Notes under the pieces: model-generated
The model's input: only the letters and a program-made list of their open reading frames with translations
What the model was told of the DNA's origin: nothing
Databases searched by the model: none
IMG/VR virus record: IMGVR_UViG_3300027808_000024
Reading direction: 5' to 3' (one strand)
Source of the DNA: an uncultured virus (IMG/VR IMGVR_UViG_3300027808_000024)
Lineage: Duplodnaviria; Heunggongvirae; Uroviricota; Caudoviricetes
Length of the DNA stretch: 64,000 bases
Shown: in pieces, positions 40,336 through 62,115 of the stretch
How the letters are laid out: each line of letters starts with the position of its first letter
Numbering within the stretch: the stretch's first letter is position 1
Made by a program: the position numbers and the translations under genes

Positions 40336-41182
40336 TTAAATGTCTCATTATCTTAAAAGAAAAATCTCTTTTATATTTTAACCACCAGCATACGGCTCTG
40401 TGAAGATTTGCTGGATAATCATTCATTAGTTTTTCAAAAATGTTAGGCAATTCATTCCAGTCGTAAGTTAACTCTATTGGAACATTTTTGCCATAAACAT
40501 AATCGTAAAAATTTATTTCTCTGCCCTTCGGATCTTTACGATCTCCTATTGGTAAGGTCAACATTTCTATTGCCTCAAAAAACCTAAATGAATCTATTAC
40601 TTGTGCACCAGATGGGGATGGAGCAACTTTTGCGCTTGCCAGTTTGCGATAGTACTCTTGTGGTGGATCCCCCTGTGCAAAGCCCTCTGTAGGGCAATAT
40701 AGGGCGTTTTTGACTGCAGACATGGCCTTGGCTAACTCTTGCCTACGCTGATGAGTTATTTGTCCACCAAAATAAATATCATATTCTTTAATAGGATAAT
40801 TAGGAAGATTATTTTTAAGGTGCTGAGGAACTCCAATAAAAAATCTATTGTATTTTTCATGTTTTGGGTGAGGGTATTGAATCCAAATACTTATATTAGG
40901 ATGCTTAATTGCATCAACATTAAACAAACCTTGCTCATCTCCAGTTATAAATAATACAACACGATTAAGGTTTGCTAGTTCTTTGTTTATTTGTTCTTCA
41001 CTACCTGCATTTCCCTGGCCTGGTATTACAACAAAAGCTCTATCATCTTTAGGAATGCAGGTAACTAAAATTTCTTCTACACGGTTTCTATTGAATGCTT
41101 CTTTAAGCAAGCCGTAATCCCATTTGCCATTAGCAGAATCTAGTGGATCTGTAGAAAAAATATATACTTTAGATTGATTCAT
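40325..41182 (-). CDS. Putative glycosyltransferase (exostosin/GT47-like)
   Basis: YFGGQ..RR..APSPSG..SFRFFEAIE..LPI. Confidence 0.65.
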   Translation of the reverse strand: MNQSKVYIFSTDPLDSANGKWDYGLLKEAFNRNRVEEILVTCIPKDDRAFVVIPGQGNAGSEEQINKELANLNRVVLFITGDEQGLFNVDAIKHPNISIWIQYPHPKHEKYNRFFIGVPQHLKNNLPNYPIKEYDIYFGGQITHQRRQELAKAMSAVKNALYCPTEGFAQGDPPQEYYRKLASAKVAPSPSGAQVIDSFRFFEAIEMLTLPIGDRKDPKGREINFYDYVYGKNVPIELTYDWNELPNIFEKLMNDYPANLHRAVCWWLKYKRDFSFKIMRHLNEH

Positions 41183-41882
41183 AAAATAAATGAACCTCAT
41201 GCTGATAGTCTAAAATTATTTCAGTATATCCTAATCCCTTGATCCATTGTCTAAGATTATATAAAGATTCATCCCATTGCTGTAACATAAACTCAGGGTG
41301 TCCAGATAGCCAGATCTTTGGTTTGTACTCTCTAAGCACCTTCTCTGCACCTCCTAGCACCCTCCATTCACTACCCTCTACGTCCAATGAAATAGCGGTA
41401 GGTGGCTTAATGCCATGATCATACACACAAGAATCTATAGTAATTTGACCATAGGCATCTCCTTCAAGGTATAGTTCTTTAAATCCATGTGCTGCCTCAA
41501 TTACATCATTAACTTCTGGAGGCCATTCATTATAATAAATTCTTGCAAGATCATTTATTTTATCAGAAGCAAACCCAGGAATACATACCATAGGAAGTTC
41601 TAGGTTGTTTGCAGTCCATGTTGCAGGAAAGTGCGACCAAACTTTAGGATTTGGCTCAAACAACACCACCTCTGCTCCCCACATTTGACACAGCGCTGGA
41701 AACTCTCCTTCTTCAGCACCAACGTAGTAAACAACATCTCCAGTACCAATGTTCTCAGACATATGCTTTAGTCTTGGTTTTTCCCAACCGTGTGGTTGAT
41801 ACCAGTCTGGTCTATCAGCACGATGCTTTGGTAGTGTTATTTCAAATTCCCCGTTAATAGTAGCCTTAATCATTTCAGTCAT
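41169..41882 (-). CDS. FkbM-family methyltransferase
   Basis: YYVGAEEG, FEPNP, SLDVEGSEWRVLGGA. Confidence 0.8.
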   Translation of the reverse strand: MTEMIKATINGEFEITLPKHRADRPDWYQPHGWEKPRLKHMSENIGTGDVVYYVGAEEGEFPALCQMWGAEVVLFEPNPKVWSHFPATWTANNLELPMVCIPGFASDKINDLARIYYNEWPPEVNDVIEAAHGFKELYLEGDAYGQITIDSCVYDHGIKPPTAISLDVEGSEWRVLGGAEKVLREYKPKIWLSGHPEFMLQQWDESLYNLRQWIKGLGYTEIILDYQHEVHLFYESI

Positions 41883-42762
41883 TTTGTATCCATTCCATTA
41901 ATGATACCTTTGGTATCCATCCAGTTAAATCTTTAAACTTGGCATTAGACGCAAGAGTTTCTTGCACTTCACCAATTCTTGGCGGGATAAATTTAATATC
42001 ATTTGAAATCATATTAGCAATATCAAGTATAGCGTAGTTGCTTCCATACCCAATGTTATATACCTCACCAAATCCATTTTCAACTTCAGATGCAAGTATG
42101 TTTGCTTCTATTACGTCTGATATATGAGTAAAATCTCTACGCTGAGATCCATTACCAACTACTGTTAGTGGTTTTGACTCATGATATTGTTTTAAGAATA
42201 GTCCTATTACTGGGGCATACTGTCCTTTTAATGGTTGTCTATCTCCATAAACATTAAAATATCTAAGAGATATAGTCTTTAATCCGTAAAGGTTATAATA
42301 AACTCTTGCAAGGTTTTCACCAAAAACTTTAGCAGCAGAGTATGGAGTTAACGGATCAGGCGATTGGGTTTCTTGGTTTGGAAGCAAAGCCTTTTTACCA
42401 TAAGAAGAAGATGTGCTTGAATAGATTAGCCTATCTACCTTATTAACCCTACAAAGTTCAAGAACATTTGCTGTTCCTACTGCGTTTGATTGAATAGATT
42501 TTTTAGGATTTAATATTGCTGGCTGTATTCTTGCATCAGATGCTACGTGAAATACGCAGTCAACATCTTTAAAAAGTGATGCAATTAAGTCATAGTCACA
42601 AATATCATACTTATAGTTTTGTGCCTTATCATTCCAATAGAACTGCTCATGACACTCTGCAGACTCATCATCAATACAAACAACGTCGTGACCAAGACTA
42701 ATTAACTTATCAACAAGGTTTGAACCAATAAAACCAGCACCACCAGTTACTAAATATCTCAT
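41875..42762 (-). CDS. NAD-dependent sugar epimerase/dehydratase
   Basis: TGGAGFIGS, YSAAK, RYFNVYG, RDFTHI. Confidence 0.92.
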   Translation of the reverse strand: MRYLVTGGAGFIGSNLVDKLISLGHDVVCIDDESAECHEQFYWNDKAQNYKYDICDYDLIASLFKDVDCVFHVASDARIQPAILNPKKSIQSNAVGTANVLELCRVNKVDRLIYSSTSSSYGKKALLPNQETQSPDPLTPYSAAKVFGENLARVYYNLYGLKTISLRYFNVYGDRQPLKGQYAPVIGLFLKQYHESKPLTVVGNGSQRRDFTHISDVIEANILASEVENGFGEVYNIGYGSNYAILDIANMISNDIKFIPPRIGEVQETLASNAKFKDLTGWIPKVSLMEWIQND

Positions 42763-43718
42763 TGTATGTTTAATGTTTCTAGTATTGTTGCCCACCTGTG
42801 TACATATGTGTGCTCTTGTTTAGTTCTTTCATGCCCAGCAAGTCTTATACTCTCTCTTGAAAGACCATCTACTAGATACTTATCTATCTTGGTTTTTAGA
42901 TCTTCAAGATTACCATGTTCATAAAATACAATCTCATTGCCATCTTCAAAGTATTCTTCAAGTCCTGTAATGCGAGGGTAGATAGTAAAACCACCACGAC
43001 CAGTACTTTCAAACAATCTATCACTAGTGTAGTAAGGATAGTTAAAGTTAATATTTAAACTATCACCTATTGCTATTTTGCTTCTTGCATAAATCCGATT
43101 TAAAGCATCTCCACGTACAGTTCCAGTATCTCCATCGCCACCAACATGACAAAACCTACTGCCGTAAGTGTCTTTTAAAAAATCTATTAGTTGTGGACGG
43201 AATGGATACTCTTTGTGATATCTTTTACTTCCCACGAAAATAACATCATGATCGTAATACTTTTTATTATAATCTGAATGAAGATAGCACTCTTTGTCAT
43301 AAACTCCAGCAGGAACAAAATGACCTTTTACTTTTGTATTTTTGTTAAACCAATCAGTCATTAGCTTGTCTGTAGCAAAGAAATGTTCTATGTTTGTGTA
43401 AAAACCATCATCTTTTAAGTCTTTTTGACGCTCAATACCAAACCAAAGATCAAGATGATAAGTCATGGTTGGTATGTTAATCATCTTCAATTCTTGTAAA
43501 ACTTCAATCATGTCAAAGTGTCCAGGGGTTTTCCAGCCATGGGTGTGTACCCATATGAATAAATCTGATTCTGATGCCTGGTAAAATATCTCTTTACCTG
43601 TTGCTTGACGCTCTTGTAATTTTATTACAGTATGACCCAGAGACTCCAAAGACGCTGCGTGATGATTCTCACTAGAATATGGAACTTCAAAGTTACCAAG
43701 AAAAACAATTTTTGCCAA
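42759..43718 (-). CDS. Glycosyltransferase (CgeB/YkvP-like)
   Basis: TTG start with GGAGG; DVIFVGS..SDRLFE..GGF..HTYVHR. Confidence 0.8.
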   Translation of the reverse strand: MAKIVFLGNFEVPYSSENHHAASLESLGHTVIKLQERQATGKEIFYQASESDLFIWVHTHGWKTPGHFDMIEVLQELKMINIPTMTYHLDLWFGIERQKDLKDDGFYTNIEHFFATDKLMTDWFNKNTKVKGHFVPAGVYDKECYLHSDYNKKYYDHDVIFVGSKRYHKEYPFRPQLIDFLKDTYGSRFCHVGGDGDTGTVRGDALNRIYARSKIAIGDSLNINFNYPYYTSDRLFESTGRGGFTIYPRITGLEEYFEDGNEIVFYEHGNLEDLKTKIDKYLVDGLSRESIRLAGHERTKQEHTYVHRWATILETLNIQ

Positions 43719-43772
43719 TTTTATCCTCCACTGTAAATAATTATAGCATGATATACTTGTAATAGGGGTAAA

Positions 43773-44465
43773 ATGAATTTTATATATATATGTCGTGGCG
43801 GGGAAAACCAAGAACTTAGGTACTCTGTTAGGACAGTTGTTAATAGTTTTCCAGACTCAGAGATCTGGGTAGTCGGCGGTATACCAAATTGGTACAAAGG
43901 TAAAAGTATAAGCATAGAGCAAAATGCTAGTAAATATAATAACGCTATAGAAAACCTAAAGGCTATCGTAAAGTCTACAGAAACCCCAGAAGAGTTTGTT
44001 TTAATGAATGATGACTTCTTCATTGTAGACAAAATAAATTCAATAAAACATTATCACGAGGGACCCCTCCTTGATAAAATTGAAAAATACAGGGATTTAA
44101 AAATGGATCCTAGTTACGTTCAAAAACTTGGACAGACCTATGCCAGATTACAAAGAATGGGCATGGAAGAGCCTGTAAGTTATGAAACTCATACCCCAAT
44201 GATTATGCTTAAAGATAGGCTTAAAGAGGTTTTACAATATTGTCCTACTAGCCTTTGGAGATCTCTGTATGGCAACATACATCATGTTGGTGGAGAACAA
44301 ATAAAAGATGTAAAGGTTTACTATAGAGATAGGTTTGCAAAAATATCAAATGACTATACTAATTCTGATTTCCCTTTGATGTCTACAGACGATGAATCAT
44401 TTTTAATAATAAGAGATAGTTTATTAAAAAATAAGTTTAACAAGAAAAGTAAATACGAGAAATAA
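43773..44465 (+). CDS. Stealth-like putative sugar-phosphate transferase
   Basis: ELRYSVRTV and FVLMNDDFFI resemble Stealth CR2 motifs. Confidence 0.55.
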   Translation: MNFIYICRGGENQELRYSVRTVVNSFPDSEIWVVGGIPNWYKGKSISIEQNASKYNNAIENLKAIVKSTETPEEFVLMNDDFFIVDKINSIKHYHEGPLLDKIEKYRDLKMDPSYVQKLGQTYARLQRMGMEEPVSYETHTPMIMLKDRLKEVLQYCPTSLWRSLYGNIHHVGGEQIKDVKVYYRDRFAKISNDYTNSDFPLMSTDDESFLIIRDSLLKNKFNKKSKYEK

Positions 44466-44467
44466 AA

Positions 44468-45154
44468 CTATCTCATAAAATGATAATCGCCATCTGGGCC
44501 ATTGTCAGAAAACATCCCCATGTTTTTAAATCCTTGTGATGAAAGATAATCAATGATAACTTCTTTTTCAGGAGATCCAATATTATATTCTACATCTCTT
44601 AGCTCTACTATAAGGTGTTCACAAGTTTTTAATGATTTAGTTGCACCCACAAGGACATCTAGTTCTGCGCCCTGAACATCAATTTTAATAAAGTCTGGCT
44701 CTTTAAACATTTCATATTTGACGGTATCATCTAAAGTAATGGTTGTCATTTCAACTATACTGTTATCATCAAACAAATAATCTGCTGCTGGACTATATTT
44801 TGAATTTTCTTTGTAATATGAATTGCCAGCAAAGTTATCATTGTTCTGATAAAACTTTATATTTTTGTCAGAAGCATTACTTAAGGCACCAATGCTGTAT
44901 TGCAATCCGCTTTCAACATAAAGACTTTCAAATGCATCTGTTGCATCAAACAAAACTATTTCACTCTCAGGCCAGATATCTTGCGCTCTTTGTGTCCAGT
45001 GTAAAACACATGCTCCAATATCATAAATTACTTTTGGGTTGAAGTTGTAATCATATTTTAATTTAAGCAGATATTTAAAATGTTTATCTGGTAGGTTTCT
45101 ATAGTCGCTAACCTTTTTAATATTATCTAAAATATTTTTATTATATTGTTTCAT
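44468..45154 (-). CDS. FkbM-family methyltransferase
   Basis: IYDIGAC, IKIDVQGAELDVLVGA. Confidence 0.82.
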   Translation of the reverse strand: MKQYNKNILDNIKKVSDYRNLPDKHFKYLLKLKYDYNFNPKVIYDIGACVLHWTQRAQDIWPESEIVLFDATDAFESLYVESGLQYSIGALSNASDKNIKFYQNNDNFAGNSYYKENSKYSPAADYLFDDNSIVEMTTITLDDTVKYEMFKEPDFIKIDVQGAELDVLVGATKSLKTCEHLIVELRDVEYNIGSPEKEVIIDYLSSQGFKNMGMFSDNGPDGDYHFMR

Positions 45155-45728
45155 TGTTAATATCATACTTTCCAATTTTATTTAGCCACTGTGCCATAGC
45201 CCATGCCTCACGAAACCTTATGTTTGCCATAGTCATACCATACTCTCTACACAACCTTTCAAAATCTTTATAGGTTTTTGGTTTTTTTGTAAAAAGAATC
45301 CACATCAAGGCCGACTCTGTTGTTAAAAATGTTTTGCCACCTTTTATATGAGAAGGTCTTTTAATTACGTTGCACCTTCTGCATCTCAAAGTCATGTTTT
45401 CTAAACTGTCTGCTTGATCCCCTAACACTTCTCTCGGAACTATGTGATCCGCCTGCAATTCAAGTCGTGTTCCGCAGTCAGCACATTTACCATTTTGATT
45501 CTTATGCCATTCATAAACAGCCTGCATGGTTTTTCTTGGTGGATATTTACTTTGAAAAGTTTTTTTTGATGCTATAGAGGTTCCCACTTGTGATGGATTT
45601 AAGTGTCCAAGAACTAAAGCCACAACTTCTTGCATGGTAACAAGACCCTCTGTAATTAATTCATTTAATAAATTAATCCAATCTTGTTGAGTCCATTCAC
45701 GATCACTGTCTGGAAATTTATTTTGCAT
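45141..45728 (-). CDS. HNH endonuclease
   Basis: CADCG..ADHIVP..N...CRRCNVIK. Confidence 0.85.
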   Translation of the reverse strand: MQNKFPDSDREWTQQDWINLLNELITEGLVTMQEVVALVLGHLNPSQVGTSIASKKTFQSKYPPRKTMQAVYEWHKNQNGKCADCGTRLELQADHIVPREVLGDQADSLENMTLRCRRCNVIKRPSHIKGGKTFLTTESALMWILFTKKPKTYKDFERLCREYGMTMANIRFREAWAMAQWLNKIGKYDINNETI

Positions 45729-48415: not shown

Positions 48416-48777
48416 ATGCTATTACCCCCAATAGAAATCCTATAATAAATGCAGAACATACAAAAGTTGAGATAAATCGTTTTTCAAGCCATCGTTTAAT
48501 TACGGCTCGTTCTATCTCACGATCCACTTCATAAACCACATCATCAACTTTGTATTCTGTCATGACTAGCCTATCTCTTTAATGAGCCTTGCTAGAATAT
48601 GAGTAGCCTCGTCAATTTCGTGAAGAGAGCCTGAAAAGATCAGTTCGTGTGCCTTTGTGATTTCTGTCTTTATATATTCGTTAGTAAGTTCCATCAAACC
48701 AGTATACCCTAAAAAAGCGGGGGAGTCAAACAAAAACCACTATCAAAGTAAGTAAAGGAACAAACCACCATATATGC

Positions 48778-49005
48778 TTAATCACGTATCTGCCCATATA
48801 AGGTATCTGGTTTGTCAGGAATTGTGTTAGGAGTCTCATGATCTGAGCATACGGGGTATAGTTTATGGCCAATTGACTTGATACCCTCGGACTTTTTAGA
48901 ACAGAAATAGCATATGGCCATAAAGGCTTGACCGTTTTTGCGTATCTTGTCTAAGGCTTCTACAAGTCTCTTATCTTTATACCATTGGGTATGTTGGCTA
49001 GGCAT
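48778..49005 (-). CDS. Small Zn-binding protein
   Basis: AGGAGG RBS; CYFC..CSDH. Confidence 0.55.
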   Translation of the reverse strand: MPSQHTQWYKDKRLVEALDKIRKNGQAFMAICYFCSKKSEGIKSIGHKLYPVCSDHETPNTIPDKPDTLYGQIRD

Positions 49006-49323
49006 ATATTCCTCCTAGGAATAAGTATATCAGGCAGGAGGGTTTTTGTCTATTTCTTCTAATATTTTCTTAGCAAGTTCTTGGGCCTGAATATCTTTGT
49101 GTTTGGTTTTGAGATATGGGGATAGAAGGTTTGCTATCAGGTCTATCATTTCTTGATTCATATCTGGATATTTATTATACATTATTAATGAGCCGTTTTT
49201 CTCATACTCAGGAGACTGCACTCATTTTTCTGTGGATAGGGTAGAGGCAAATGTATCAGATCCCTACTTTGTGGTTGTGGTAGATGATGGTTTAACCCAT
49301 CACCTATCTAATAGTATATCAGA

Positions 49324-50022
49324 TTAGGAATAGTCTTTGCGTACCCAATGATTTTTTTTATACCAGCCAGAAAATACTGAGCTAGATTTTTTACCATTTA
49401 GTATGCCCATTTTAAGAAGACCTTTTGATTCTTTTGATATCCAAGAATCTTGTTTAAATGGTATTAATTGGGCTACTGGAGTTCCTTGTTCTATAACTCC
49501 TTCAAAACCACTTTTAATATAAAAGGGATAAGAACCATGTGGATTTGTAACATACCCACCGTCTATTATTCCAGAAAGAGTGAAAAATGGAAGATCATGT
49601 CTATTAAGTGGATGAGTTAATAAAATACTATATCCTTTTGGAACTTGAAAAGCAACATTGGTATTCCATGTATATTCTATTGGATAACAGCCTGTTGGGA
49701 CTAGTGAACTATCAGATACTTCATTTCTAAATCCAGGTGGGTTGCTCATGGTGCCCCATACAACATATGGCGCTCCGTTGTTATTTTTAACATAAATATC
49801 AGATGGCAGCAATAGCATATAGCCACTTGAAAGACCATTTAAAAATGGAACACATTGTTTTACTGTTAAATTAATGTTATTTTTAGAGTCTATTATTTCT
49901 CCATTTTTCCATTTTGGTATTTTTTTATACCAATTGGGTATTACATTTTTAGACGGAACAAGTGTGTTTGGATATTCTTCTAGTGCTGATTCATATTTTA
50001 TAGTTGGTTTTTTCTTAAACAT
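49324..50022 (-). CDS. DUF6065-like / dUTPase-like beta-fold protein
   Basis: CVPF..SGY, THPLNR.DLPF.TLSGIID, IEQGTPVAQLIPF. Confidence 0.5.
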   Translation of the reverse strand: MFKKKPTIKYESALEEYPNTLVPSKNVIPNWYKKIPKWKNGEIIDSKNNINLTVKQCVPFLNGLSSGYMLLLPSDIYVKNNNGAPYVVWGTMSNPPGFRNEVSDSSLVPTGCYPIEYTWNTNVAFQVPKGYSILLTHPLNRHDLPFFTLSGIIDGGYVTNPHGSYPFYIKSGFEGVIEQGTPVAQLIPFKQDSWISKESKGLLKMGILNGKKSSSVFSGWYKKNHWVRKDYS

Positions 50023-50039
50023 GTTTTAATTGTATCAGA

Positions 50040-50770
50040 TATGCCTGGATTTGTAAAGTTATCCACAAATAAATCTTACTGATAAAAAAATGTTATACCA
50101 ATGGTGGAGGAAAGTGGAGGGAGGTGGGGGATGGAGCGCTTTTGCTGAGGGGATCGTAATACCAAACCAAATATCCCAAACCACGTATCCACGATATGGG
50201 GCATATGATACACCAGATATAATGGTTTGTCAAGCCCTAAATACCGCCCCAAAAATGTGTAGAAATGTAACAAAACTATAACAAAAAGTTATAAAACCTT
50301 TTAATAACAAACCAAAATATCTAGAAAAGTTAGAAAATGTTTTGTCTCTATATATGGGGGGATTAGGAATAGGGATCGTAATCTTTTTTATCCCCGCCCC
50401 TGCGGGGCCGCCGCCTGCGGCGGGGTATTTGACAAGGATCGTAATCCCTAGTATACTTATAGTATTGAATCTGGCCTTGCAGTCATTGATTCAATATTTG
50501 GGATCTGGTTACCTTTCTGGCCAGGTCCCAATTTTTATGGTTTGATATAGTCTAAACTTTCAGCGGGGGCTACGGTTTGAGGGTTCTTAATGTCTTTTTC
50601 AAAAAATGGGCGGGGATTCAAAGATACACATCAAACCTAGTATAAGAGACATAAGGTTTATATAATACAAGGTTTGGGGATATAAGGTTTGGGATCGTAA
50701 TGGTTTTTTAAGGTTTGAGATGTCCAGATTGTCTGGTTTGATATGATATTACCCGGGGGGCCTAAAAGGA
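50040..50770. other. Candidate replication origin / regulatory non-coding region
   Basis: DnaA box TTATCCACA at 50059; four GGATCGTAAT copies; many GGTTT/AAACC; AT-rich and GC-rich patches; no convincing ORF. Confidence 0.55.
50104..50129 (+). promoter_or_regulatory. MraZ-type binding repeats
   Basis: GTGGAG-N4-GTGGAG-N4-GTGGGG. Confidence 0.55.
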
Positions 50771-50773
50771 TCT

Positions 50774-51043
50774 TTAGGGTTTTTTATCTGCTTTGAAAAG
50801 AACCTCGTCTAAATCTTCAAACCCTGTATCCTCAACCTCAACGGATGCTAAAAATAAATCAAATGTTTCTGCTACATACTTAGCCCCATCAGGTCTTATA
50901 TCGCATAGCCCCTCATTAGCAAGATAGGCTAATGGCAAACCAATATCATTGAACTCAAAGAATTGGTCTGCTTCCTCATCATCTTGATATCTAACATAGA
51001 ACTCTCCTAGTATTACTATCTTATTAGAAAAGTCTGTCGTCAT
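50774..51043 (-). CDS. Hypothetical acidic protein
   Basis: GGAGG RBS; 89 aa. Confidence 0.55.
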   Translation of the reverse strand: MTTDFSNKIVILGEFYVRYQDDEEADQFFEFNDIGLPLAYLANEGLCDIRPDGAKYVAETFDLFLASVEVEDTGFEDLDEVLFKADKKP

Positions 51044-51260
51044 AGTGTCCTCCCTGTTGGTAGTATTCTCTTACTTCTTTATTATACCTTGCCGATTCTA
51101 AAATCTCAAGTGCTCTTGAATAAGGCACATAGGGAATAGCGGTTGCCAAGTAGTAGCCAACTGCCTCTAAGTCTAAAGAAAAATCAGATACGAGTGTAGA
51201 AATCTTTTGGGCAACCTTCTCCTCTTTTGTAGGTGTAGCGTTGCGTTTGATTCTATACAT
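51024..51260 (-). CDS. Hypothetical protein
   Basis: MYRIKR start after GGGAGG. Confidence 0.55.
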   Translation of the reverse strand: MYRIKRNATPTKEEKVAQKISTLVSDFSLDLEAVGYYLATAIPYVPYSRALEILESARYNKEVREYYQQGGHYDDRLF

Positions 51261-51383
51261 AGTTCCTCCCATTGTATCAAATAAGTAGGGAGAGCGCAAG
51301 CCCCACACCTGCGCTCTACCCTTATATCACGTGAGGGACCCCACCCCACGCATTCAGCCTAGGTCACCACTCCAGGCTCTCAG

Positions 51384-51737
51384 TTAAACCTTTAAACTTA
51401 AATGATAATTAATAAAACTATCAAACTCATGAATGCCAGTTTCATCTTCTACAGTCTTATTAATTAAATCAATAGTGATATCTGGATGGTCTCCACCATA
51501 GTCCATACCGTGGCCATTACTGGCCCATAGACCAAAACCTGTCTCCTCTGTCCACTGGTCCCCAATCAGCTGAGACACAATGATACGGGTTGCATAGGAT
51601 GTGTCATTCCGCCTAGGTTCTGCAGCCTGTAGTGCACGGGCAAGGTTAACAAATCTATCATAGCCACCCCAATGACTGTATAAATTTACAGATAAGTCTT
51701 TATCTTGTTTGATTGTGTAGACGATTCTATCTCCCAC
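51384..51737 (-). CDS. Phage hypothetical protein
   Basis: MGDR..LYSHWGG motif. Confidence 0.6.
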   Translation of the reverse strand: MGDRIVYTIKQDKDLSVNLYSHWGGYDRFVNLARALQAAEPRRNDTSYATRIIVSQLIGDQWTEETGFGLWASNGHGMDYGGDHPDITIDLINKTVEDETGIHEFDSFINYHLSLKV

Positions 51738-52063
51738 TATTCATCATCTCCTACAAATTCGATAACAACTCTAGCAACTCGTCCGTCCTCATTCATTTCA
51801 GCATAGACAGGATAGAGCCCGTCGCCATAGCCAGTTGAGAACACTACAGCGGTAGCCATACCTAACTCGCCATAGCCTTTTGTTATGGTAGCCTCACAAG
51901 CCCCAAGATAACTATACTCTCCTACTTTTTGTTTATGTAGTTCAAAGTCCTCAGCCTCATCATTCCAAGGCTCCCACTCATCAAGATAGCAAGGGTCGCC
52001 TACCATGGCTTGCCCACTATCAACAGAAAAATGTCCAATAAGGGTCATTTCTTTAGTATCCAT
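51737..52063 (-). CDS. DUF4241-like protein
   Basis: VDSGQAMVGDPCY, STGYGDGLYPVY. Confidence 0.65.
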   Translation of the reverse strand: MDTKEMTLIGHFSVDSGQAMVGDPCYLDEWEPWNDEAEDFELHKQKVGEYSYLGACEATITKGYGELGMATAVVFSTGYGDGLYPVYAEMNEDGRVARVVIEFVGDDE

Positions 52064-52186
52064 TTCTTTCCTCTCCTTTGGTGTTTATGTCAATTCTATC
52101 AAAATCCAGCGGTAATGTCAATTGCTGATAAATCCCTAATAGATCCAACTGTTGTTTTGCCTTTAATACATCTAATGATTCTATTA

Positions 52187-52438
52187 TCATGTACCGTCCC
52201 TTTCTGCGATTGCAAATGACAAGTCATATGTTAGTTTATATAGATTTGTATAAGCGTCTAGCATACCTTCACAGTATGTCCTGTTCATTGAATCCATGGC
52301 CTCACCTGAGAGCTCTTCTATATCTGCAGCAGCCTCTAATGAGCGTTCAGCCTCCAGCATAAGATTTTTAAGCTCTCCATGTATGACATCAAGGCCTGAT
52401 GAGCCCAGGTCAATCTGTTTCTGTAGATTGTCGTTCAT
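52187..52438 (-). CDS. Hypothetical protein
   Basis: Overlapping leftward ORF run. Confidence 0.5.
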   Translation of the reverse strand: MNDNLQKQIDLGSSGLDVIHGELKNLMLEAERSLEAAADIEELSGEAMDSMNRTYCEGMLDAYTNLYKLTYDLSFAIAERDGT

Positions 52439-52637
52439 CTCTTTCTCTTTCCTCTCCTATTTGTATAAAGTGACGGGTAGCAATAATCTGCCCACCTAAC
52501 CAGTTAAACTCAAAATCTAATTCAGCATAGTCTTTAGAATTCATATCTAATGATTCCATTTGTTCTTTTACATATTCCTGGTCTTGTTCAATACTAACAA
52601 GATGTAGCTTCATATATTCTATCAAATAAGAACTCAT
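52410..52637 (-). CDS. Hypothetical protein
   Basis: Coupled acidic ORF. Confidence 0.5.
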   Translation of the reverse strand: MSSYLIEYMKLHLVSIEQDQEYVKEQMESLDMNSKDYAELDFEFNWLGGQIIATRHFIQIGEERERDERQSTETD

Positions 52638-52864
52638 TAGTCTACCTCAATATAATATTGGTCATCAGGATTCATATTGTAGAATTTATTAAATGCCTGT
52701 TTAATTTCTTTAGAATCAGACAATGAAGCAAATTGATAATCTGCATACAATGTACCCTCATCTAAATTAGAATCCATCCATTCAGTAAATAGATGTTCTG
52801 ATATTGCTTGTATCTCATAATCAATAACCATTTGGTTAATGTTTGCTTCCTCTAGGAAACTCAT
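52637..52864 (-). CDS. Hypothetical protein
   Basis: Coupled acidic ORF. Confidence 0.5.
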   Translation of the reverse strand: MSFLEEANINQMVIDYEIQAISEHLFTEWMDSNLDEGTLYADYQFASLSDSKEIKQAFNKFYNMNPDDQYYIEVD

Positions 52865-53610
52865 TTGATTTGGTCCCTTCTGTATTCTGGTAGATGTGCT
52901 TCGTCTAAGTATACTTTATGGGTATCACATTCTGCAACTGCCTCTAGGTCTGCCTCGCCTAGCCAGTTACACGATTCACATATCTGACCACATTCACTCT
53001 CACAATAATCTAATGTGTTGGTTGCTTCGCAATCTCTGCACATATTCTCATATCCAGAATCAGAAATCATTTCACCACGCAAGAACTCACACTCACCACC
53101 CCAACCTGTCTCTTCCTCATAAGATAAGGTAAAGAGCAATGTTGGATACTGACTAGATAGTTTAGCAATAGCAGGCATTGGCGGCGACCAAGCGGTATTA
53201 AAATTATAATAAACAACTAGATTCTCTCCATTAGGAGTAGGACCTTCCATATATGTATCAGGATGTTCATTATCAGAAGATACAGCAATTTCCCATTTAG
53301 TTCCCCAGTTGCGGACATTCCATGAATACCAGTCATTGCCTTTGAACTGCATGGCTTCTTCAATTGGTAATTTATGGTCAGGCTGCCCTGAATACTCATA
53401 CTCAGTAACACCGTCTTCAATATAGTTATAGATATTATAGAATGCAAATACAGGATTTGGATAAGTAGTTAATTTCTTTTCCATTTGTCCAGTCTCCGTG
53501 TTCCATGAATCATGGACCATTTTGAATGGTTTATTAAGTTGTGCTACAAGGTCATTAACCTCTGACGGACTACCTTCTATAGTAAGTCCACTAAATACCC
53601 AATTAGGCAT
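52861..53610 (-). CDS. YubB/DUF1281 ferredoxin-like domain protein
   Basis: MPNW..DWYSWNVRNWGTKW..FNTAWSPP; AGAAAGG RBS. Confidence 0.75.
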   Translation of the reverse strand: MPNWVFSGLTIEGSPSEVNDLVAQLNKPFKMVHDSWNTETGQMEKKLTTYPNPVFAFYNIYNYIEDGVTEYEYSGQPDHKLPIEEAMQFKGNDWYSWNVRNWGTKWEIAVSSDNEHPDTYMEGPTPNGENLVVYYNFNTAWSPPMPAIAKLSSQYPTLLFTLSYEEETGWGGECEFLRGEMISDSGYENMCRDCEATNTLDYCESECGQICESCNWLGEADLEAVAECDTHKVYLDEAHLPEYRRDQIK

Positions 53611-54284
53611 GGGGGTCCTTTCTGTTTGTCGTAATACAATTATCCCAAAATCAGGGAATTCTGTCAATCTGTCGTAAAGTGATTTTGGTCACACCTTTCC
53701 CTCTACCCTCGTGGATTGGCATTCCATGCACTTAGGATCTATAGGATCGTAGTACTCTTTATAGCCAACATCCTCCAACTCACCTGCGGCAGTATATGTG
53801 GCCTCGTTATAGGAATTCTCCATGAATGAGAACCTAGTTACATTATTACAATCTAAACACTTAGGCATCTGCACCCATCTCCCATGGCTCTACTTTATAG
53901 TTTGCACATATTTGCTCAATGCAATCTTCAAGTTCGGTAAAGAATAGGCCACCTTCATTGTCGTCAAAATGACTAATCATGTTGTCAGTTATCTTGAATT
54001 CCCATACTATTTTCATTGGACATGTCCTTCTGCTAACAGACCTTCAAAGAAGTCCCATACTATTAGTAATTGTTTATAGTTTTGTTCATCCCCTTGGTTT
54101 TTGGCAGTATCAATAGCCCAAGTCAAACTATTACCAAATGCTTGTATATCTTGATATGTATAACCTAACATAATTACCCTTTCTGTGGTAAATATATTGT
54201 AGCAAATTTTGGGGAAAAAATCAAACTATCGTAAAGAATTTTAGGTAAAAATATCATGGATCCCGGGGGGATTTTAAAAAAAGT

Positions 54285-54312
54285 TGAGCAGTTTATACTC
54301 TTACTCAGGAGT
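54285..54312 (-). ncRNA. Repeated H-type pseudoknot, copy A
   Basis: ACUC-CUGAGUAA-GAGU-AUAAAC-UGCUCA. Confidence 0.65.
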
Positions 54313-54321
54313 TGAATTAGA

Positions 54322-55332
54322 TTAAACTAATTCTAAAGTATTTTTTACAATACTTAGCAGACGATTTTTTTCTGCTGTAATTGTCGCATCAAAACCAGAA
54401 GCAGCAGCAAGCAGAGATTCGTTAGAATTACCACGAGCAGACCTGTGCCAATCAAGGCGTTCAGTTAGAGCATTGAAAGCACCCCAAGCGGTATTGGCAA
54501 TCATGCCATTAAACTCGCCTGTGTAAATATCATTGATTAAATCAATTTTATTTTCCCACTTCTTTGATGAGCCTTTAGAATCTTTATCAGGCTTAGGATA
54601 AGCAGCAAGAACAATATCATTGAACTGTTGCGCTGTGATTTCTTTTTCAATCATAGCCTTAGCCATAACATCAAAAGAATCCATATAAGCATTAGCAAGA
54701 CCAAGGGCCTCACGAGCAATTTGGACTTTACCATTAGCGGTCTGTGTGTGGCGAATCTTGAAAGATTGCTTGATTTTATTCTTCTTAGAACCAAGCGCAA
54801 GATTAAGAGTGTTAGCGCATACAACACGCACTGGTGTGATACTTGCTTGAATAGCAATAGAGCCATCATGTGATGTATTGATAAGTAAATAAGTTTTTAC
54901 CTTATCTGCCACACCATTAGGGTCTAATACTGTTTCACGCTCAAGAGCAAGAGAGCCAAATACAACACGCCCTCCACGAATAGAGCCAGCGGTTTCCCAT
55001 CTGCCTCCACCATCTAGGATATTATCACCAAATGAGAATAAGTCCTCATTTTGTAAAACATGATAACGCTCACCAACAACACCTAAAATATCTGTCTGAG
55101 AGTTATTTGTAGGATTTGTCCTAACAACATACTGATATTCTTTATCTGATGATAAAGTATTTGGAATCTCAACATCAACTAATCTAACATTCCAATTATT
55201 TAGATTAGCAGCAGCAAGCATTTCTGCTGTGGTTTTTTCATCTGTGAATACTGTGCCTAGACCATGCCAAGCAGGCTCACGCAATGAAGCAAAAGAAGCA
55301 ACGCCATTTTGCGTTTCTAACTCATGTGCCAT
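54322..55332 (-). CDS. DUF932-family phage/plasmid protein
   Basis: MAHE..PAWHGLG..ETAGSIRGG..NTSHDGS..RVVCANTL..RHT. Confidence 0.85.
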   Translation of the reverse strand: MAHELETQNGVASFASLREPAWHGLGTVFTDEKTTAEMLAAANLNNWNVRLVDVEIPNTLSSDKEYQYVVRTNPTNNSQTDILGVVGERYHVLQNEDLFSFGDNILDGGGRWETAGSIRGGRVVFGSLALERETVLDPNGVADKVKTYLLINTSHDGSIAIQASITPVRVVCANTLNLALGSKKNKIKQSFKIRHTQTANGKVQIAREALGLANAYMDSFDVMAKAMIEKEITAQQFNDIVLAAYPKPDKDSKGSSKKWENKIDLINDIYTGEFNGMIANTAWGAFNALTERLDWHRSARGNSNESLLAAASGFDATITAEKNRLLSIVKNTLELV

Positions 55333-55360
55333 TTTTATTTCCTTTCTATTTGTTTAGACA

Positions 55361-55382
55361 ATCATATCAGGTGGGTCTGACA
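55361..55382 (-). promoter_or_regulatory. PafBC/RecA-NDp-type promoter
   Basis: TGTCAG-N10-TATGAT, with TTGACA just upstream. Confidence 0.6.
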
Positions 55383-55470
55383 ATGTCAATTCATACTATT
55401 AAGAATCTGGGCAAAACGGACATCGTTCTTAAACTTGACAAAAGATCTTTTTGCCCCCCGGGATTTTGGA

Positions 55471-55498
55471 GAGCAGTTTTAAGACATGCTCAGGTCTT
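55471..55498 (-). ncRNA. Repeated H-type pseudoknot, copy B
   Basis: AAGAC-CUGAGCAU-GUCUU-AAAAC-UGCUC. Confidence 0.65.
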
Positions 55499-55512
55499 GG
55501 ATAGCCCCACTA

Positions 55513-55977
55513 TCACACGTTATAGATATTATCTATCTCAACACCTACTTCTCCGTCATATGAATTTAGTTCAGCATAAACATTTAAGTCAATGTCGCTA
55601 ACCTCAAAATTAGCAACTTCATCTAACGGAACTAATATTGTTCCTGTGATTGTGGCGGTAGCCTCAAACTGAATTTCCTTAGTAGGATTAAATCCAAAGA
55701 TACTACAAATATCAGCAACGATTTCCTCTGAACCCATATCAAGGTAATCAGGTAGGCGACTTTCTAACAGACCTACTCCCTGAGTATATCTATTAAGTTC
55801 TCGTCTTTCTCTGCGGTGTTGATGTAATTCCCACTCAAGGTCGCTAACCTTTACTGTGGGATACCAATTTGTATAGTCTGTTTGGTGTGCCTCAGAATCA
55901 ATAATCTTATAGGTCACGATTTGATTTGGGTTGTAGTGGTTTGGCACTACTATTTCATTAGTTGTTTCTGTATTCAT
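55513..55977 (-). CDS. Hypothetical protein
   Basis: 154 aa; GAGG RBS. Confidence 0.6.
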   Translation of the reverse strand: MNTETTNEIVVPNHYNPNQIVTYKIIDSEAHQTDYTNWYPTVKVSDLEWELHQHRRERRELNRYTQGVGLLESRLPDYLDMGSEEIVADICSIFGFNPTKEIQFEATATITGTILVPLDEVANFEVSDIDLNVYAELNSYDGEVGVEIDNIYNV

Positions 55978-56239
55978 TTAAGAGTTCCTCTCCTACTGTA
56001 TCCATTTCTTTAATGGTATCCATCATATCGTTTAACTGTTCCTCTGTCAATAGTGCGTGGGTCACTAAGGTTGTTGTCATAGCAGAGAGCATAGCGGAAT
56101 AGTTATACATCTCTTTGATAAAACTTTCATCATCTACTTCATTTCTGATACTGACAATGTGTTTCACAATTTCCATTATCATGTCATCATGAACTGCGTC
56201 TCTTGACGCTTCTTGTAATTTAATAGCGGTTGCTATCAT
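55958..56239 (-). CDS. Hypothetical protein
   Basis: MIATAIK start after AGAAAGG. Confidence 0.6.
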   Translation of the reverse strand: MIATAIKLQEASRDAVHDDMIMEIVKHIVSIRNEVDDESFIKEMYNYSAMLSAMTTTLVTHALLTEEQLNDMMDTIKEMDTVGEELLNEYRNN

Positions 56240-56317
56240 GGGGCGTTCCTTTCTTTTGGTTATACCCAAGTCTATCAAAAATATAGGAAAAATACAAATC
56301 GTGTCTTAAACCAGCTA

Positions 56318-56333
56318 TGTGATCATTATCACA
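56318..56333. promoter_or_regulatory. CRP/GlxR-type site
   Basis: TGTGA-tcatta-TCACA. Confidence 0.6.
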
Positions 56334-56356
56334 TTTCCCGGGGGGCGCAAAAAAAA

Positions 56357-56385
56357 TAAGCAGTTTTAGTTCATGCTTAGGAACT
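56357..56385 (-). ncRNA. Repeated H-type pseudoknot, copy C
   Basis: AGUUC-CUAAGCAU-GAACU-AAAAC-UGCUUA. Confidence 0.65.
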
Positions 56386-56470
56386 GTATGCCTCGCTATA
56401 GCACTGGCAGGGACATTTGGTTGTGGCTGGGGGAATTCCGATTACACACCCGAAACCAGCCACAATTCTA

Positions 56471-56638
56471 TTAGTGTGTTTTTACCATAGCAAATCTTGT
56501 TTGATTATTTGCCAAGCGCAACATTACTTTAGTGACATTACGAGTTTGTGGGACAAACTTTTCAATGCGACCTGTAATACCTGTTTTGCTTGTTGTAAAT
56601 AAATCACCAAGTTGGTATCTGTATCCTCCAAGTGTCAT
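56471..56638 (-). CDS. 55 aa SH3/KOW-like protein (absent from ORF track)
   Basis: MTLGGYRYQLGDLFTTSKTGITGRIEKFVPQTRNVTKVMLRLANNQTRFAMVKTH; AGAAAGG RBS. Confidence 0.7.
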   Translation of the reverse strand: MTLGGYRYQLGDLFTTSKTGITGRIEKFVPQTRNVTKVMLRLANNQTRFAMVKTH

Positions 56639-56668
56639 TTACTTTTCCTTTCTGTTAGGGGTTTTTGT

Positions 56669-56698
56669 TGAGCAGTTTTAGTTGTCATACTCAGGACA
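56669..56698 (-). ncRNA. Repeated H-type pseudoknot, copy D
   Basis: UGUC-CUGAGUAU-GACA-ACUAAAAC-UGCUCA. Confidence 0.65.
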
Positions 56699-56713
56699 TT
56701 TAGCGTTTGCTAA

Positions 56714-57133
56714 TTATAGATAACGAGCGATAGCATTATAGGTGCTAGTGCTAACTACTTCCTCATCTGTCATTTTGAGAATACGAATTGCGTTCTCAAT
56801 TTCATCTACCATTTCCTTGTATTGCCACTCATTGTAAGTGTCAAAATCTTTCTGAGGTTCATCAGGTAGAACTATACTTCCACTAGGTAAGTTGAAATCT
56901 ACATTTATAGTGCCATTGTAGCGAACATTGGCAGATAAATCTGTTGCCTTGCTTATTTGAGCAAGTGCTAACTTTCCTACTTCTTTGTTGTATTTCTCTT
57001 GCGCCTTTGAGAACTTTTCCTCATTGACTTTTTGATTAGCCTTATCCTTTTGGATTTGGGCTAGTTTTGCTTCTAGAGCCTTTATGACTTTAGTTGTAGC
57101 GATTTTTACGCTAATTGCTTTTCCTCTTGACAT
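56714..57133 (-). CDS. Hypothetical protein
   Basis: AGAAAGG RBS; 139 aa. Confidence 0.65.
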   Translation of the reverse strand: MSRGKAISVKIATTKVIKALEAKLAQIQKDKANQKVNEEKFSKAQEKYNKEVGKLALAQISKATDLSANVRYNGTINVDFNLPSGSIVLPDEPQKDFDTYNEWQYKEMVDEIENAIRILKMTDEEVVSTSTYNAIARYL

Positions 57134-57219
57134 AATTACCTTTCTGTGTAATTTATTGGTGGGCTATTATTTTAGCATTTTTAGGTGGGATAGTCAATTT
57201 GGCTACCCCACCCATTTGA

Positions 57220-57384
57220 CTACTTAGATTTCCAAGTTGTCCAACGAGTTGCGCCATTTACATCAAGTTTAACGCGAACTGTGTCCTTGTTGGTTGGCAC
57301 GATTTCCTTGATAACACCTGTCACCTTAGACTTCTGTGAGGTGTAAGTGTCGCCGACCTTGTAAGTTGCTACTGCTACTGACAT
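57220..57384 (-). CDS. 54 aa SH3/KOW-like protein (absent from ORF track)
   Basis: MSVAVATYKVGDTYTSQKSKVTGVIKEIVPTNKDTVRVKLDVNGATRWTTWKSK; AAAGGAG RBS. Confidence 0.7.
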   Translation of the reverse strand: MSVAVATYKVGDTYTSQKSKVTGVIKEIVPTNKDTVRVKLDVNGATRWTTWKSK

Positions 57385-57628
57385 TGTTTCTCCTTTGTTA
57401 GTTGTTTTTTCATTACTGTATTATTATCGCATTTTTGGTATTTATTGTCAAGTCCTATACCCTAAAAATCTCATTATTTGAGATTTGTGAGGTAAGTCAC
57501 TAATTGCCCATTCCCGAAAAAACTAGCAGTAGGCATGTGACTCCTAAGATTATTAGTAATTCCACGATTCCCCTTTCTGTCCTTGATTTTATCATTTTGC
57601 GGGGGTATTGGTCAAGTCCCCCTAGATC

Positions 57629-58348
57629 CTACTTCTTCTTAGCAGAGAAAACTATATTAGCCTTGTTATCAATACATAGAGAGCAGACTACGCAAGCAGA
57701 GCCCTCTTTAGATATTAGTGGAATAGCCTTTTTATTTTCAGGGCATTTAGCTCCAGGCTTACCTATCATCTCTTTCATATCTGCCTGACCAATTGCGAAG
57801 GTATCAGCAAGGTATGCTAATTTAACTCCAGTATCTTTATTTAATTTAATAGCAATTTTTTTATTCTCGCTATCTGTGGAATAGTATAGAGATAGATTAT
57901 CAATACCCTTAAGAATATTGACCGCAGAGGCTACTCTTGTATATACCCAAAACTTTATATCAGAATTATTAAGGATGATATGCTTCCAGGCGAAGGCATA
58001 AGTATCATTGAAAAAGTCTCCGTCCCAATGGATACGAAATAATTTAGGAGCATTGCGCTTATCACAATCAGCCTTAAAATCATTTATCATATCTTGCAAT
58101 AGGTCTTCCATAGTATCGTGGTCAGCGTCTTTTAATAAATTCCAATTATGAATTAGGTTTTCTCTTACGCCTTTATATACTCTTTCAAGTTTTCCTGCGT
58201 AGCAAACACTTTCACAAACACTAGTGGCACCAGGGCACGAGTAAGCCTTGCCAGCAGGCAGTCCAAAAGTGTTGGCGATTGTTGCGGTTTTTCCATTGGG
58301 TGATACGGCATTAGCGACCTTTCTATCGTTAGAGCGTTTTAGTTTCAT
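57629..58348 (-). CDS. GP88-family (radical-SAM-like) protein
   Basis: CPGATSVCESVCYA, FRIHWDGDFF, FWVYTR, C-terminal CxxCxxC. Confidence 0.75.
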   Translation of the reverse strand: MKLKRSNDRKVANAVSPNGKTATIANTFGLPAGKAYSCPGATSVCESVCYAGKLERVYKGVRENLIHNWNLLKDADHDTMEDLLQDMINDFKADCDKRNAPKLFRIHWDGDFFNDTYAFAWKHIILNNSDIKFWVYTRVASAVNILKGIDNLSLYYSTDSENKKIAIKLNKDTGVKLAYLADTFAIGQADMKEMIGKPGAKCPENKKAIPLISKEGSACVVCSLCIDNKANIVFSAKKK

Positions 58349-58576
58349 AGGGGTCCTTTCTTACTTCCTAGAATAACATTTTTTTAATCTTTTGTCAATT
58401 TTTTATGCTTGGTTTTGCGGGAATAAATTTTCTTGTTCCTTAATGGCGTGGCAGCAGAAGACCTACGTAATTCCATTAATCTACGTAATTCTTCTCTAGG
58501 TTTTTTCCACATAAAATAATCTTATCATAAAAATATCATAAAAGCAAATCGGACAAATCGGGCGCCCCGGGGGCTT

Positions 58577-60425: not shown

Positions 60426-60446
60426 TGTGGATAACCCTGTGGATAA
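60426..60446. promoter_or_regulatory. Tandem DnaA boxes
   Basis: TGTGGATAA-ccc-TGTGGATAA. Confidence 0.7.
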
Positions 60447-60658
60447 CCCCCCCGGGGCCTTGCAACTCTAACTATTTAAATTAAAGTTGCAATTTTGAAA
60501 TCAAACTTTTATTTGATTCCATTTCATTTCAGCATTTTTTTTTCGCAATTCTCTGTTTTCATTTTCTAATTTTCTAAGTGTAATTAGTCCGTGAAATGTT
60601 ATTCCAATTAAGCCAACGAGAGCAATTATTATTGCGATTACATCAGTTGTTAAAAGTG

Positions 60659-61755: not shown

Positions 61756-61788
61756 TTTAAGACCTACCTTTCTTTTTAGTGTGTTAAC

Positions 61789-61860
61789 TTATTTGCTCTT
61801 ATCTTATTTGCTAGGCTCACCTTTCGGATTATTTGCTAGGCTCATTTAAGAGGCTCATTT
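61789..61860 (-). repeat. Direct repeats in 5' leader (TGAGCCTAGCAAATAA x2 plus partial copies)
   Basis: ttatttgctaggctca at 61804 and 61829; partial copies at 61789 and 61851. Confidence 0.8.
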
Positions 61861-61888
61861 AACACTATTTATTTTTTCTTATACTAGA

Positions 61889-62115
61889 ATTATAACAGGG
61901 GGGTCTGACATTTTGAGAGAACAAATCAGGATAAATCGGACATTCTGAAAAACTATTTTTGTGATAGTAGTCACAAATAAACTATGACAAATCGGACACC
62001 CCCCGGGGACCGACACGCCCGAACGCGGGGGTGGGAAAAGTGTGACCAACACCACAAAAATACTTTGCGACACGCCGTGTTTAGATTTGATTTTGTCGGT
62101 CTGCTCTGTTATACT
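61889..62115. promoter_or_regulatory. Divergent promoter hub
   Basis: Leftward TGTCAG-N10-TATAAT (61889-61910); rightward TGTCGG-N10-TATACT (62094-62115); CRP-type, GACAC and GGACA motifs between. Confidence 0.7.

Follow-up and report, generated by a model that had tools for sequence, protein, structure and literature searches.

A small covarying H-type pseudoknot behind the stop codons of phage genes: an uncatalogued RNA family

Pseudoknot copies in the minus-strand arm

The DNA considered here is a stretch of 64,000 nucleotides (nt) from an uncultured virus of the class Caudoviricetes (IMG/VR record IMGVR_UViG_3300027808_000024), which is called the window throughout; its sequence is present in freshwater metagenomes, and its proteins include members of the DUF932 and GP88 families, as judged from Pfam and PHROGs. 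Along the coding strand of its minus-strand arm lie five copies of a small RNA element, a predicted pseudoknot, spaced 300-5000 nt apart (Table 1). Four of these (copies A-D) had been picked out from the letters alone in an earlier description (the sequence-only reading), and all four are present with the letters given there; the distances that it gave between each copy and the preceding stop codon are likewise correct. Copies A-D are assembled from the same parts in the same order: the 5′ strand of a variable stem 1, an 8-nt loop of the form C-U-R-A-G-Y-A-W, the return strand of stem 1, a linker that ends in AAAC, and finally UGCUY(A), which pairs back to the loop to form stem 2. As the sequence-only reading had also maintained, stem 1 differs between these copies yet always pairs, and stem 2 covaries.

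When only nested pairs are allowed, each of the five copies forms one stem at a time, with predicted free energies of -4.0 to -6.5 kcal/mol and z scores of -2.2 to 0.0; both stems can coexist only as an H-type pseudoknot. A fixed-gap version of the pattern gives three matches in the window, as against 0.00 expected from 100 shuffles, and misses copy D, the linker of which is 2 nt longer. The covariance model used for more sensitive matching was built from 147 sequences with copies A-D among them, so that their scores of 41.6-45.9 bits follow by construction. The fifth copy was absent from this training set, and the search with the model recovered it at 49219-49186 of the minus strand with 21.9 bits and an E value of 1.1e-5. 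It lies in an intergenic spacer and starts ~108 nt past the stop of open reading frame (ORF) 49324-50022. A search of GenBank phage DNA with the window returned short coding matches to Streptomyces and Mycobacterium phages, none of which falls at the elements.

Table 1. Pseudoknot copies and adjoining features, by position in the window (bp, base pairs)
Feature	Position	Strand	Description	Placement	Model score (bits)
Pseudoknot copy A	54285..54312	minus	stem 1 ACUC/GAGU, 4 bp; stem 2 UGAGUA/UGCUCA, 6 bp with one G-U	stem 1 begins 9 nt past the stop of the DUF932 gene	44.4
Pseudoknot copy B	55471..55498	minus	stem 1 AAGAC/GUCUU, 5 bp; stem 2 GAGCA/UGCUC, 5 bp	stem 1 begins 14 nt past the stop of ORF 55513-55977	45.9
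Pseudoknot copy C	56357..56385	minus	stem 1 AGUUC/GAACU; stem 2 UAAGCA/UGCUUA with a compensated A-U pair	stem 1 begins 85 nt past the stop of ORF 56471-56638	42.1
Pseudoknot copy D	56669..56698	minus	stem 1 UGUC/GACA; stem 2 UGAGUA/UGCUCA; linker 2 nt longer	15 nt past the stop of ORF 56714-57133; ends 30 nt ahead of the following start	41.6
Fifth, diverged copy	49189..49215	minus	stem 1 UCUC/GAGA; stem 2 UGAGU/GGCUCA, 5 pairs formed, last A-G unpaired		
U7 run	54276..54282	minus		two bases past copy A	
U8 run	56349..56356	minus		directly past copy C	
G/C palindrome	54262..54270		C6G3 on the minus strand; candidate association with the pseudoknot only	14 nt past copy A	
G/C palindrome	55454..55462		opposite orientation	8 nt past copy B	
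G/C palindrome	56337..56345			past copy C and its U run	
Sigma-70-like promoter	55361..55389	minus	TTGACA, 17-nt spacer, TATGAT, upstream TG; consensus match only	between copy B and the DUF932 gene	
Promoter-like site	54196..54224	minus	9 of 12 consensus positions; consensus match only	downstream of copy A	

Copies A, B and C each stand at a gene end and are followed by a G/C palindrome and then by a sigma-70-like promoter, recognized by consensus match only; the promoter-like site past copy B would place that copy where a transcription unit ends. Copy D and the fifth copy are intercistronic. The statement in the sequence-only reading that no copy is followed by a long U tail holds for copies B and D, but fails for copies A and C, each of which has a U run close behind it.

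Compensated helices and conserved unpaired letters

The element recurs widely in a viral-contig collection, and the counts given below for its canonical stem 2 and for the G-to-A and A-U variants refer to the matches listed, the true totals being at least as high. At least three consecutive complementary pairs are formed in stem 1 by 130 of the 143 matches of the CTGAG form and by 92 of the 121 of the CTAAG form, where chance would give ~5%; moreover, the sequence of stem 1 is different in almost every copy. The linker, searched at lengths of 4-9 nt, was 6 nt long in 198 of the 222 matches with a valid stem 1.

Stem 2 varies in the same compensated manner. At pair 11-34, G is accompanied by C in 126 matches and by U in 4, and A is accompanied by U in 84 and by C in 8. 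With G barred from position 13 and its partner at position 32 left free, 100 unique matches were obtained, 97 of them with a valid stem 1, and in 96 of these 97 the change is compensated (A-U in 83, U-A in 8 and C-G in 5), leaving one unpaired. Variants at pair 15-30 are rare (23 unique matches, 12 with a valid stem 1), and 10 of the 12 are paired. Across the 147-row alignment, 94.9% of the cells pair, as against 78.7% after shuffling and 22-45% when the partners are slid by one to three columns; since the rows were pre-selected for at least three stem 1 pairs, the free tests within this alignment are those of stem 2 and of the outer stem 1 pair. Additionally, pair 14-31 is G-U in 38 of the 147 rows, which on the opposite strand would be an A-C mismatch, and this ties the structure to the sense strand. 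The H-type pseudoknot fold is under selection: what the sequence-only reading had proposed from four elements is borne out by the covariation that its two stems show across hundreds of copies, each independent of the others. Two resemblances in stem 2 were considered and dropped, namely, a tRNA D-stem mimic (from GAGC/GCUC), because the pair covaries freely, and a boxA antitermination signal (from UGCUC), because the letters that follow are not conserved.

The unpaired letters and the pair that closes stem 1 were examined with the canonical stem 2 fixed, so that the resulting figures of 97-99% describe that subfamily only. When left free, loop 1 is C in 116 of 117 matches, the linker ends in AAAC in 117 of 120, and stem 1 is closed by C-G in 114 of 117 and by G-C in the other 3. 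The anatomy is thus a variable stem 1 of 3-5 bp closed by C-G, a loop 1 consisting of a single C, a stem 2 of 5-6 bp, one base between stem 2 and the return strand of stem 1, and an A-rich linker ending in AAAC before the 3′ strand of stem 2; both the loop 1 C and the AAAC linker may be engaged in triple-helix contacts with the helices.

When one genome per prokaryotic species was searched, at least 127 matches were found, 115 of those listed having a valid stem 1. The labels of the carrier assemblies among the matches listed include Firmicutes (Lactobacillaceae, Enterococcus, Streptococcus and Clostridia), Bacteroidota, Saccharibacteria and other candidate phyla, Cyanobacteria, Proteobacteria, Aminicenantes, Chloroflexi, Planctomycetes and others. 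Copies within one genome gather on one contig (for example, seven in 5 kb of a G006 contig), which fits prophage or phage DNA, and cultured phages also carry the motif in unannotated spacers: Lactobacillus prophage Lj771 (in which it lies ~70 nt before the scaffold gene), phi jlb1, KC5a, phiAQ113, Lactobacillus helveticus phages, Anoxybacillus A403 and Cylindrospermopsis phages. One related locus (L373; G006 contig 138, 5500-13500) contains a 5-kb stretch with few long ORFs, at least seven pseudoknots, three twister-P1-like ribozymes and other repeated modules, such as a GUUGAAACACGAAAAG word; small structured RNAs are packed densely there around tiny genes.

Rfam 15 gave no match at the elements, whether the whole window was scanned at the gathering score, the surrounding 4 kb at E values up to 10, or 20 related loci. 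Literature searches by sequence string and by topic brought up no account of the motif, although it could still be an unnamed candidate in the supplements of PMC10690425 and PMC5737381, which lay outside their scope, and the literal strings occurred in unrelated primers and small interfering RNAs only; it is also not described in the accessible text of Weinberg et al. 2017 or of the 2023 survey of viral structured RNAs (PMC10690425). The motif is an uncatalogued RNA family of a known general kind, abundant across phyla, and the window copies display its defining features: a stem 1 closed by C-G, the loop 1 C, stem 2, the AAAC linker, sense-strand orientation and a position past a stop codon.

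Position past the stop codon and neighbouring RNA elements

The placement of the knot was tabulated for instances among the matches listed. Within flanks of 280 nt, a same-strand ORF of at least 60 codons ends before the motif in 109 of 123 instances, and in 61 of those 109 its stop lies 0-10 nt before stem 1; an open frame occupies the upstream flank on the same strand in 67 cases, and on the opposite strand alone in nine. The distance between the last base of the stop codon and loop 1 has an abrupt onset at 9 nt: it is shorter in only 4 of 137 instances, and the counts at 9, 10, 11, 12 and 13 nt are 32, 19, 13, 19 and 12, respectively.

Regarding the genes themselves, 17 of the 92 upstream ORF fragments scanned against PHROGs are relatives of the DUF932 gene of the window (phrog_1221), and the others include Hsp20, ribonucleotide reductase, an SSB-like protein and endolysin, most being unknowns; beyond the 17, the 92 fragments share no function. 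Behind these 17 relatives the knot is kept and the downstream content differs. Moreover, a metatranscriptome contig of a relative matches the window as far as the 3′ edge of copy D (56667) and then continues into another ribosome-binding site and gene, which marks a mosaic joint at copy D. The knot thus travels with the upstream gene.

The slot immediately past the stop codon serves more than one fold, as hairpins begin there in the window also, 6 nt past the stops of ORFs 57220-57384 and 56471-56638. The first of these hairpins (57155-57222, minus strand) has a predicted free energy of -22.1 kcal/mol and a z score of -3.5; a SAM-II-like Rfam hit at the same place (57217-57162) scored 21 bits against a gathering score of 44 and was set aside as probably spurious, the sequence folding as a 12-bp hairpin. 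Also 6 nt past a stop, at 57575-57630 of the minus strand, lies a GGGGG/CCCCC hairpin that may be a second type of pseudoknot, since UCAAG 14 nt downstream is able to pair with its CUUGA loop; the hairpin overlaps a promoter-like site, and shuffled sequences fold at least as well (z 0.24).

What follows the knot is varied. A same-strand tRNA gene stands 5-14 nt past it in 13 of 241 instances and upstream of it in none, the tRNAs being confirmed by Rfam in four loci. Type III hammerhead matches follow in L288 (41 bits, E value 1e-6) and L003 (32 bits, E value 5e-4), both below the gathering score of 48.5, and hammerhead-like cores in L284 and L009; as read from the sequences by eye, 6-9 nt separate the knot from the hammerhead cut site that follows. 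Directly past a knot in L373 is a twister-P1-like match (40.6 bits, E value 6e-6, below gathering), and two more twisters in this locus are preceded by a variant hairpin, the loop of which can, by eye, pair with the A-rich tail that follows. The DUF2800 RNA motif (RF02960) is found directly past the knot in two loci (L035, 285-445, 160 bits; L327, 176-324, 135 bits), and canonical terminator-like hairpins were seen by eye 10-25 nt past some copies. Of the 107 instances that have an ORF downstream, 64 have the following start codon within 45 nt of the knot (median distance 35 nt), and in about half of cases the knot precedes the next ribosome-binding site.

A U-rich stretch (at least five U in eight) directly past the knot is present in 105 of 329 instances, as against 32 and 24 at two control positions. 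It does not behave as a marker of operon ends, the median distance to the next start being 35 nt both with and without it. In the window, a simple terminator consensus scan called no classic minus-strand terminator at the ends of the units concerned. The letters ACCA follow stem 2 in 11 of 198 instances, with A at 61% in position +1, and C at 38% and 32% in positions +2 and +3, respectively. Finally, much of 53-58.6 kb is covered by contigs from four freshwater RNA libraries, one contig bridging copies C and D. Contigs carry no information on transcript ends, strand or level and may stem from DNA carried over, and the gaps in their coverage of the stretch prove nothing.

Several further features of the window were recorded alongside the knot. 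The G/C-only palindromes (a CCCGGG core plus an extra C or G) number seven (50752-50760, 54262-54270, 55454-55462, 56337-56345, 58565-58573, 60447-60456 and 61999-62007); every CCCGGG site of the window falls within 50.7-62 kb of the minus-strand arm, in both orientations, mostly at the ends of transcription units and upstream of sigma-70-like promoters, and several have a GTGTC...ATTTG-type motif behind them. The palindromes may act as operators or form mini-hairpins. A pair of perfect DnaA-box-like nonamers (TTATCCACA, minus strand), 3 nt apart at 60426-60446, adjoins one of the palindromes, and nonamers of this kind also lie past the pseudoknot in related loci L006 and L012. The 751 nt at 50023-50773 are gene-free and contain four copies of ATTACGATCC, many CAAACC-type words, divergent promoter-like sites and, at 50498-50531, a strong terminator-like hairpin of bidirectional appearance; this region may be an origin or a control region. 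An intergenic spacer at 61756-61878 (minus strand) carries direct repeats of AAATGAGCC and GAGCCTAGCAAATAA words, and a sugar-modification cluster at 38528-45175 (minus strand) encodes glycosyltransferases, an NAD-dependent epimerase/dehydratase and two FkbM-type methyltransferases.

Possible roles of the knot

Our preferred reading, which we hold tentatively, is that the knot is a compact element that bounds the upstream cistron at its 3′ end, capping the message where the transcript is cut or ends. The 9-nt limit corresponds to the downstream reach of a ribosome on the stop codon, and a knot at that distance is then at its mRNA entrance. With the stop codon in the A site, the knot would, therefore, stand just outside the ribosome and would not have to be melted by translation; once folded, it would give the upstream message a structured end, at which trimming by 3′-to-5′ exonucleases would halt before the stop codon was lost. 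Such protection would be of value if cleavage occurs a few bases downstream, whether by a self-cleaving ribozyme or by RNase P acting on a tRNA, or if a terminator ends the transcript; the knot would also keep the translated region apart from any RNA element or ribosome-binding site behind it. The selected fold, its ownership by the upstream gene, the RNA ends that would be made just behind it and the post-stop slot shared with hairpins are all consistent with such a cap; its resistance to nucleases and any effect on message stability are inferred. Of the four functions put forward in the sequence-only reading, a nuclease-blocking end cap or processing-associated signal is the best contextual fit, given the position after stop codons and directly before tRNAs, hammerheads and twisters.

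We hold this reading no more firmly because the predicted stability is low and the unpaired letters are conserved. Several observations weigh against it. The predicted free energies of the window copies are weaker than that of a typical terminator hairpin, which makes a plain thermodynamic block to nucleases doubtful unless tertiary contacts add much, and unpaired letters that are ~97-99% conserved across many phyla suggest something more than a roadblock, hinting at a specific partner or chemistry. In the window itself, the copies begin 9-85 nt past the stop, away from the tight modal distance of the family. Furthermore, a canonical terminator, where one is present behind the knot, leaves little apparent need for a further cap; the DUF2800 motif that follows in two loci is a regulatory-type RNA without a known cut; and the RNA evidence consists of contigs, with a single one bridging copies C and D.

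The conservation of the unpaired letters might instead reflect specific binding of some conserved partner, be it the terminating ribosome, another universal host factor, a phage protein or a small ligand, at a site through which events at the cistron boundary, such as termination and recycling, re-initiation or the access of Rho, would be regulated. We consider this doubtful. It would account for the near-invariance of the loop 1 C, the AAAC and the closing C-G pair in assemblies of many phyla, for an onset of distances that puts the knot at the mRNA entrance of a ribosome at the stop codon, and for the proximity of the next start; moreover, a pseudoknot with several nucleotides at least 97% conserved in multiple phyla is, in the accessible text of Weinberg et al. 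2017, a sign of a demanding biochemical task, and the conservation seen here agrees with that description. However, those conservation figures cover one subfamily, the letters of stem 2 covary so freely that little of the helix surface is fixed, the partners downstream vary between tRNA, ribozyme, terminator and start site, and no candidate protein has been identified. The flanking genes are diverse and mostly of unknown function, which argues against a pathway-specific riboswitch, and the ligand-binding element of the sequence-only reading, thus, fits poorly: the small pseudoknot riboswitches (preQ1-I, SAM-II/V) stand in the 5′ leaders of genes of one pathway, whereas the knot stands past stop codons with diverse flanks and varied elements downstream, and their Rfam models gave no match at the elements. 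It is unlikely that the knot is a minimal functional RNA acting on the universal machinery at the stop codon, by docking to the ribosome or by blocking a Rho-like 5′-to-3′ translocase, or that it is the smallest natural self-processing RNA; an active class of this kind would explain both the 9-nt minimum and the contrast between the 97-99% conserved loop 1 C and AAAC and the freely covarying helices.

The excess of U-rich stretches past the knot, the U7 and U8 runs past copies A and C, the promoter-like sites downstream of copies A, B and C, and the lack of a called classic terminator at these unit ends would all suit a leaky intrinsic terminator or pause signal of pseudoknot type, in which the 3′ strand of stem 2 and the U run would serve as the terminator hairpin. 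Even so, we judge this rather improbable: two-thirds of the instances have no U run, the median of 35 nt to the next start is the same with or without one, a canonical terminator follows some copies, and many others lie between tight cistrons or before tRNAs that require read-through; an RNA contig spans copy C and its U run as well, which counts weakly, given possible DNA carry-over. The mark of an intrinsic terminator, a G+C-rich hairpin directly followed by a U run, gave a mixed picture: the consensus scan called none at these sites, and U-rich stretches are in excess over the control positions. A further step down in probability is the proposal that the knot is itself the site of processing, either as a very small self-cleaving RNA or as a fold recognized by a host RNase. 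Its unpaired nucleotides are highly conserved and it shares its slots in phage operons with hammerhead and twister ribozymes, but there would be no need for a second cutter when a ribozyme or tRNA stands 5-14 nt further on and, at 27-30 nt, the knot would be smaller than any natural self-cleaving class known to us. Nor, given the rarity of ACCA past stem 2, is the knot a usual tRNA-like substrate of RNase P, with a 3′ ACCA after stacked helices. Clustered hammerheads that flank genes have been described by Perreault et al. 2011 (PMC3088659), as far as its accessible text goes, and offer a precedent for cutters in such positions. Finally, mimicry of a type III antitoxin RNA (ToxI-like), or some other anti-defence RNA decoy, as entertained in the sequence-only reading, now appears very improbable. 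Size and pseudoknot topology are all that favours it, ToxI being a small pseudoknot RNA of about 30-36 nt; unlike ToxI, with its tandem repeats of ~34-36 nt and partner toxin gene, the knot occurs as single, dispersed copies (Tandem Repeats Finder on 48500-58000 detects no array at any of the five sites) and has no match in sequence or model to ToxI, nor any in Rfam. No ToxN-like or defence protein lies nearby, none of 17 neighbouring proteins matching PADLOC, and PHROGs and Pfam showing only DUF932, GP88 and unknowns; furthermore, the position of the knot is tied to the stops of ordinary genes in phages and prophages of many phyla.

Comparison with known systems places the knot near several of them. 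In the accessible text of Perreault et al. 2011 (PMC3088659), clustered self-cleaving ribozymes flank single genes in phage and prophage operons, and the knot resembles these in occupying intergenic sense-strand slots between small phage genes, often several per operon, in lying directly beside hammerheads and twisters, and in an implied role of dividing long messages into gene-sized units; however, it is much smaller, lies 5′ of the cut site and would not itself be the cutter; the Rfam models of self-cleaving ribozymes (hammerhead, twister, pistol and hatchet) give no match on the knot, those for hammerhead and twister matching beside it. In architecture, its closest relatives would be the compact frameshift pseudoknots of luteovirids, among which we would not count it: they share a length of ~28 nt, a very short loop 1 with a conserved C, an A-rich linker along stem 1 and a location a few bases downstream of the A-site codon, but the knot has a stop codon upstream instead of a slippery heptamer, has no extended frame and belongs to DNA phages of bacteria. 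Thus, of the features expected of a -1 frameshift signal, the compact H-type fold is present, whereas the slippery heptamer 5-9 nt upstream and an overlapping -1 frame are absent. Stop-codon read-through and frameshifting were accordingly discarded, the last sense codons also being diverse and the UGA/UAA of the loop falling 60/46/31 in the three frames, with no preference for any one of them.

Repetitive extragenic palindromic elements and the RNase III sites of T7 early genes are likewise short, repeated, structured elements past stop codons, and are thought to shield the upstream message from 3′ exonucleases; the knot differs from them in being a pseudoknot rather than a long hairpin, in its far lower predicted stability and in the conservation of its sequence across phyla. 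The 3′-end triple helix of MALAT1-type RNAs adjoins a tRNA-like structure that RNase P cleaves; some knots are likewise A-rich elements just upstream of a tRNA, at which processing by RNase P would create the 3′ end of the upstream RNA. The domain of life, size and fold are different, and for the knot the triple-stranded element is a possibility suggested by its letters. Functionally, the knot may come closest to the ribozyme 'punctuation' of phage operons and to intercistronic stabilizers, as a member of neither.

If the boundary reading is correct, phages of very different hosts share a tiny and portable RNA marker of gene ends on their long messages, a device that works beside ribozymes, tRNAs and terminators and that would be a missing piece in how phage operons are cut into stable units. 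Such a 28-nt part could also find use in synthetic operons, as an insulator or 3′ stabilizer. Behind unpaired letters so nearly invariant there may be a more specific job, involving the ribosome, another factor or a ligand, which would be of interest to RNA biology more widely. As the motif is abundant and is not in Rfam 15, a curated family would improve the annotation of phage intergenic regions.

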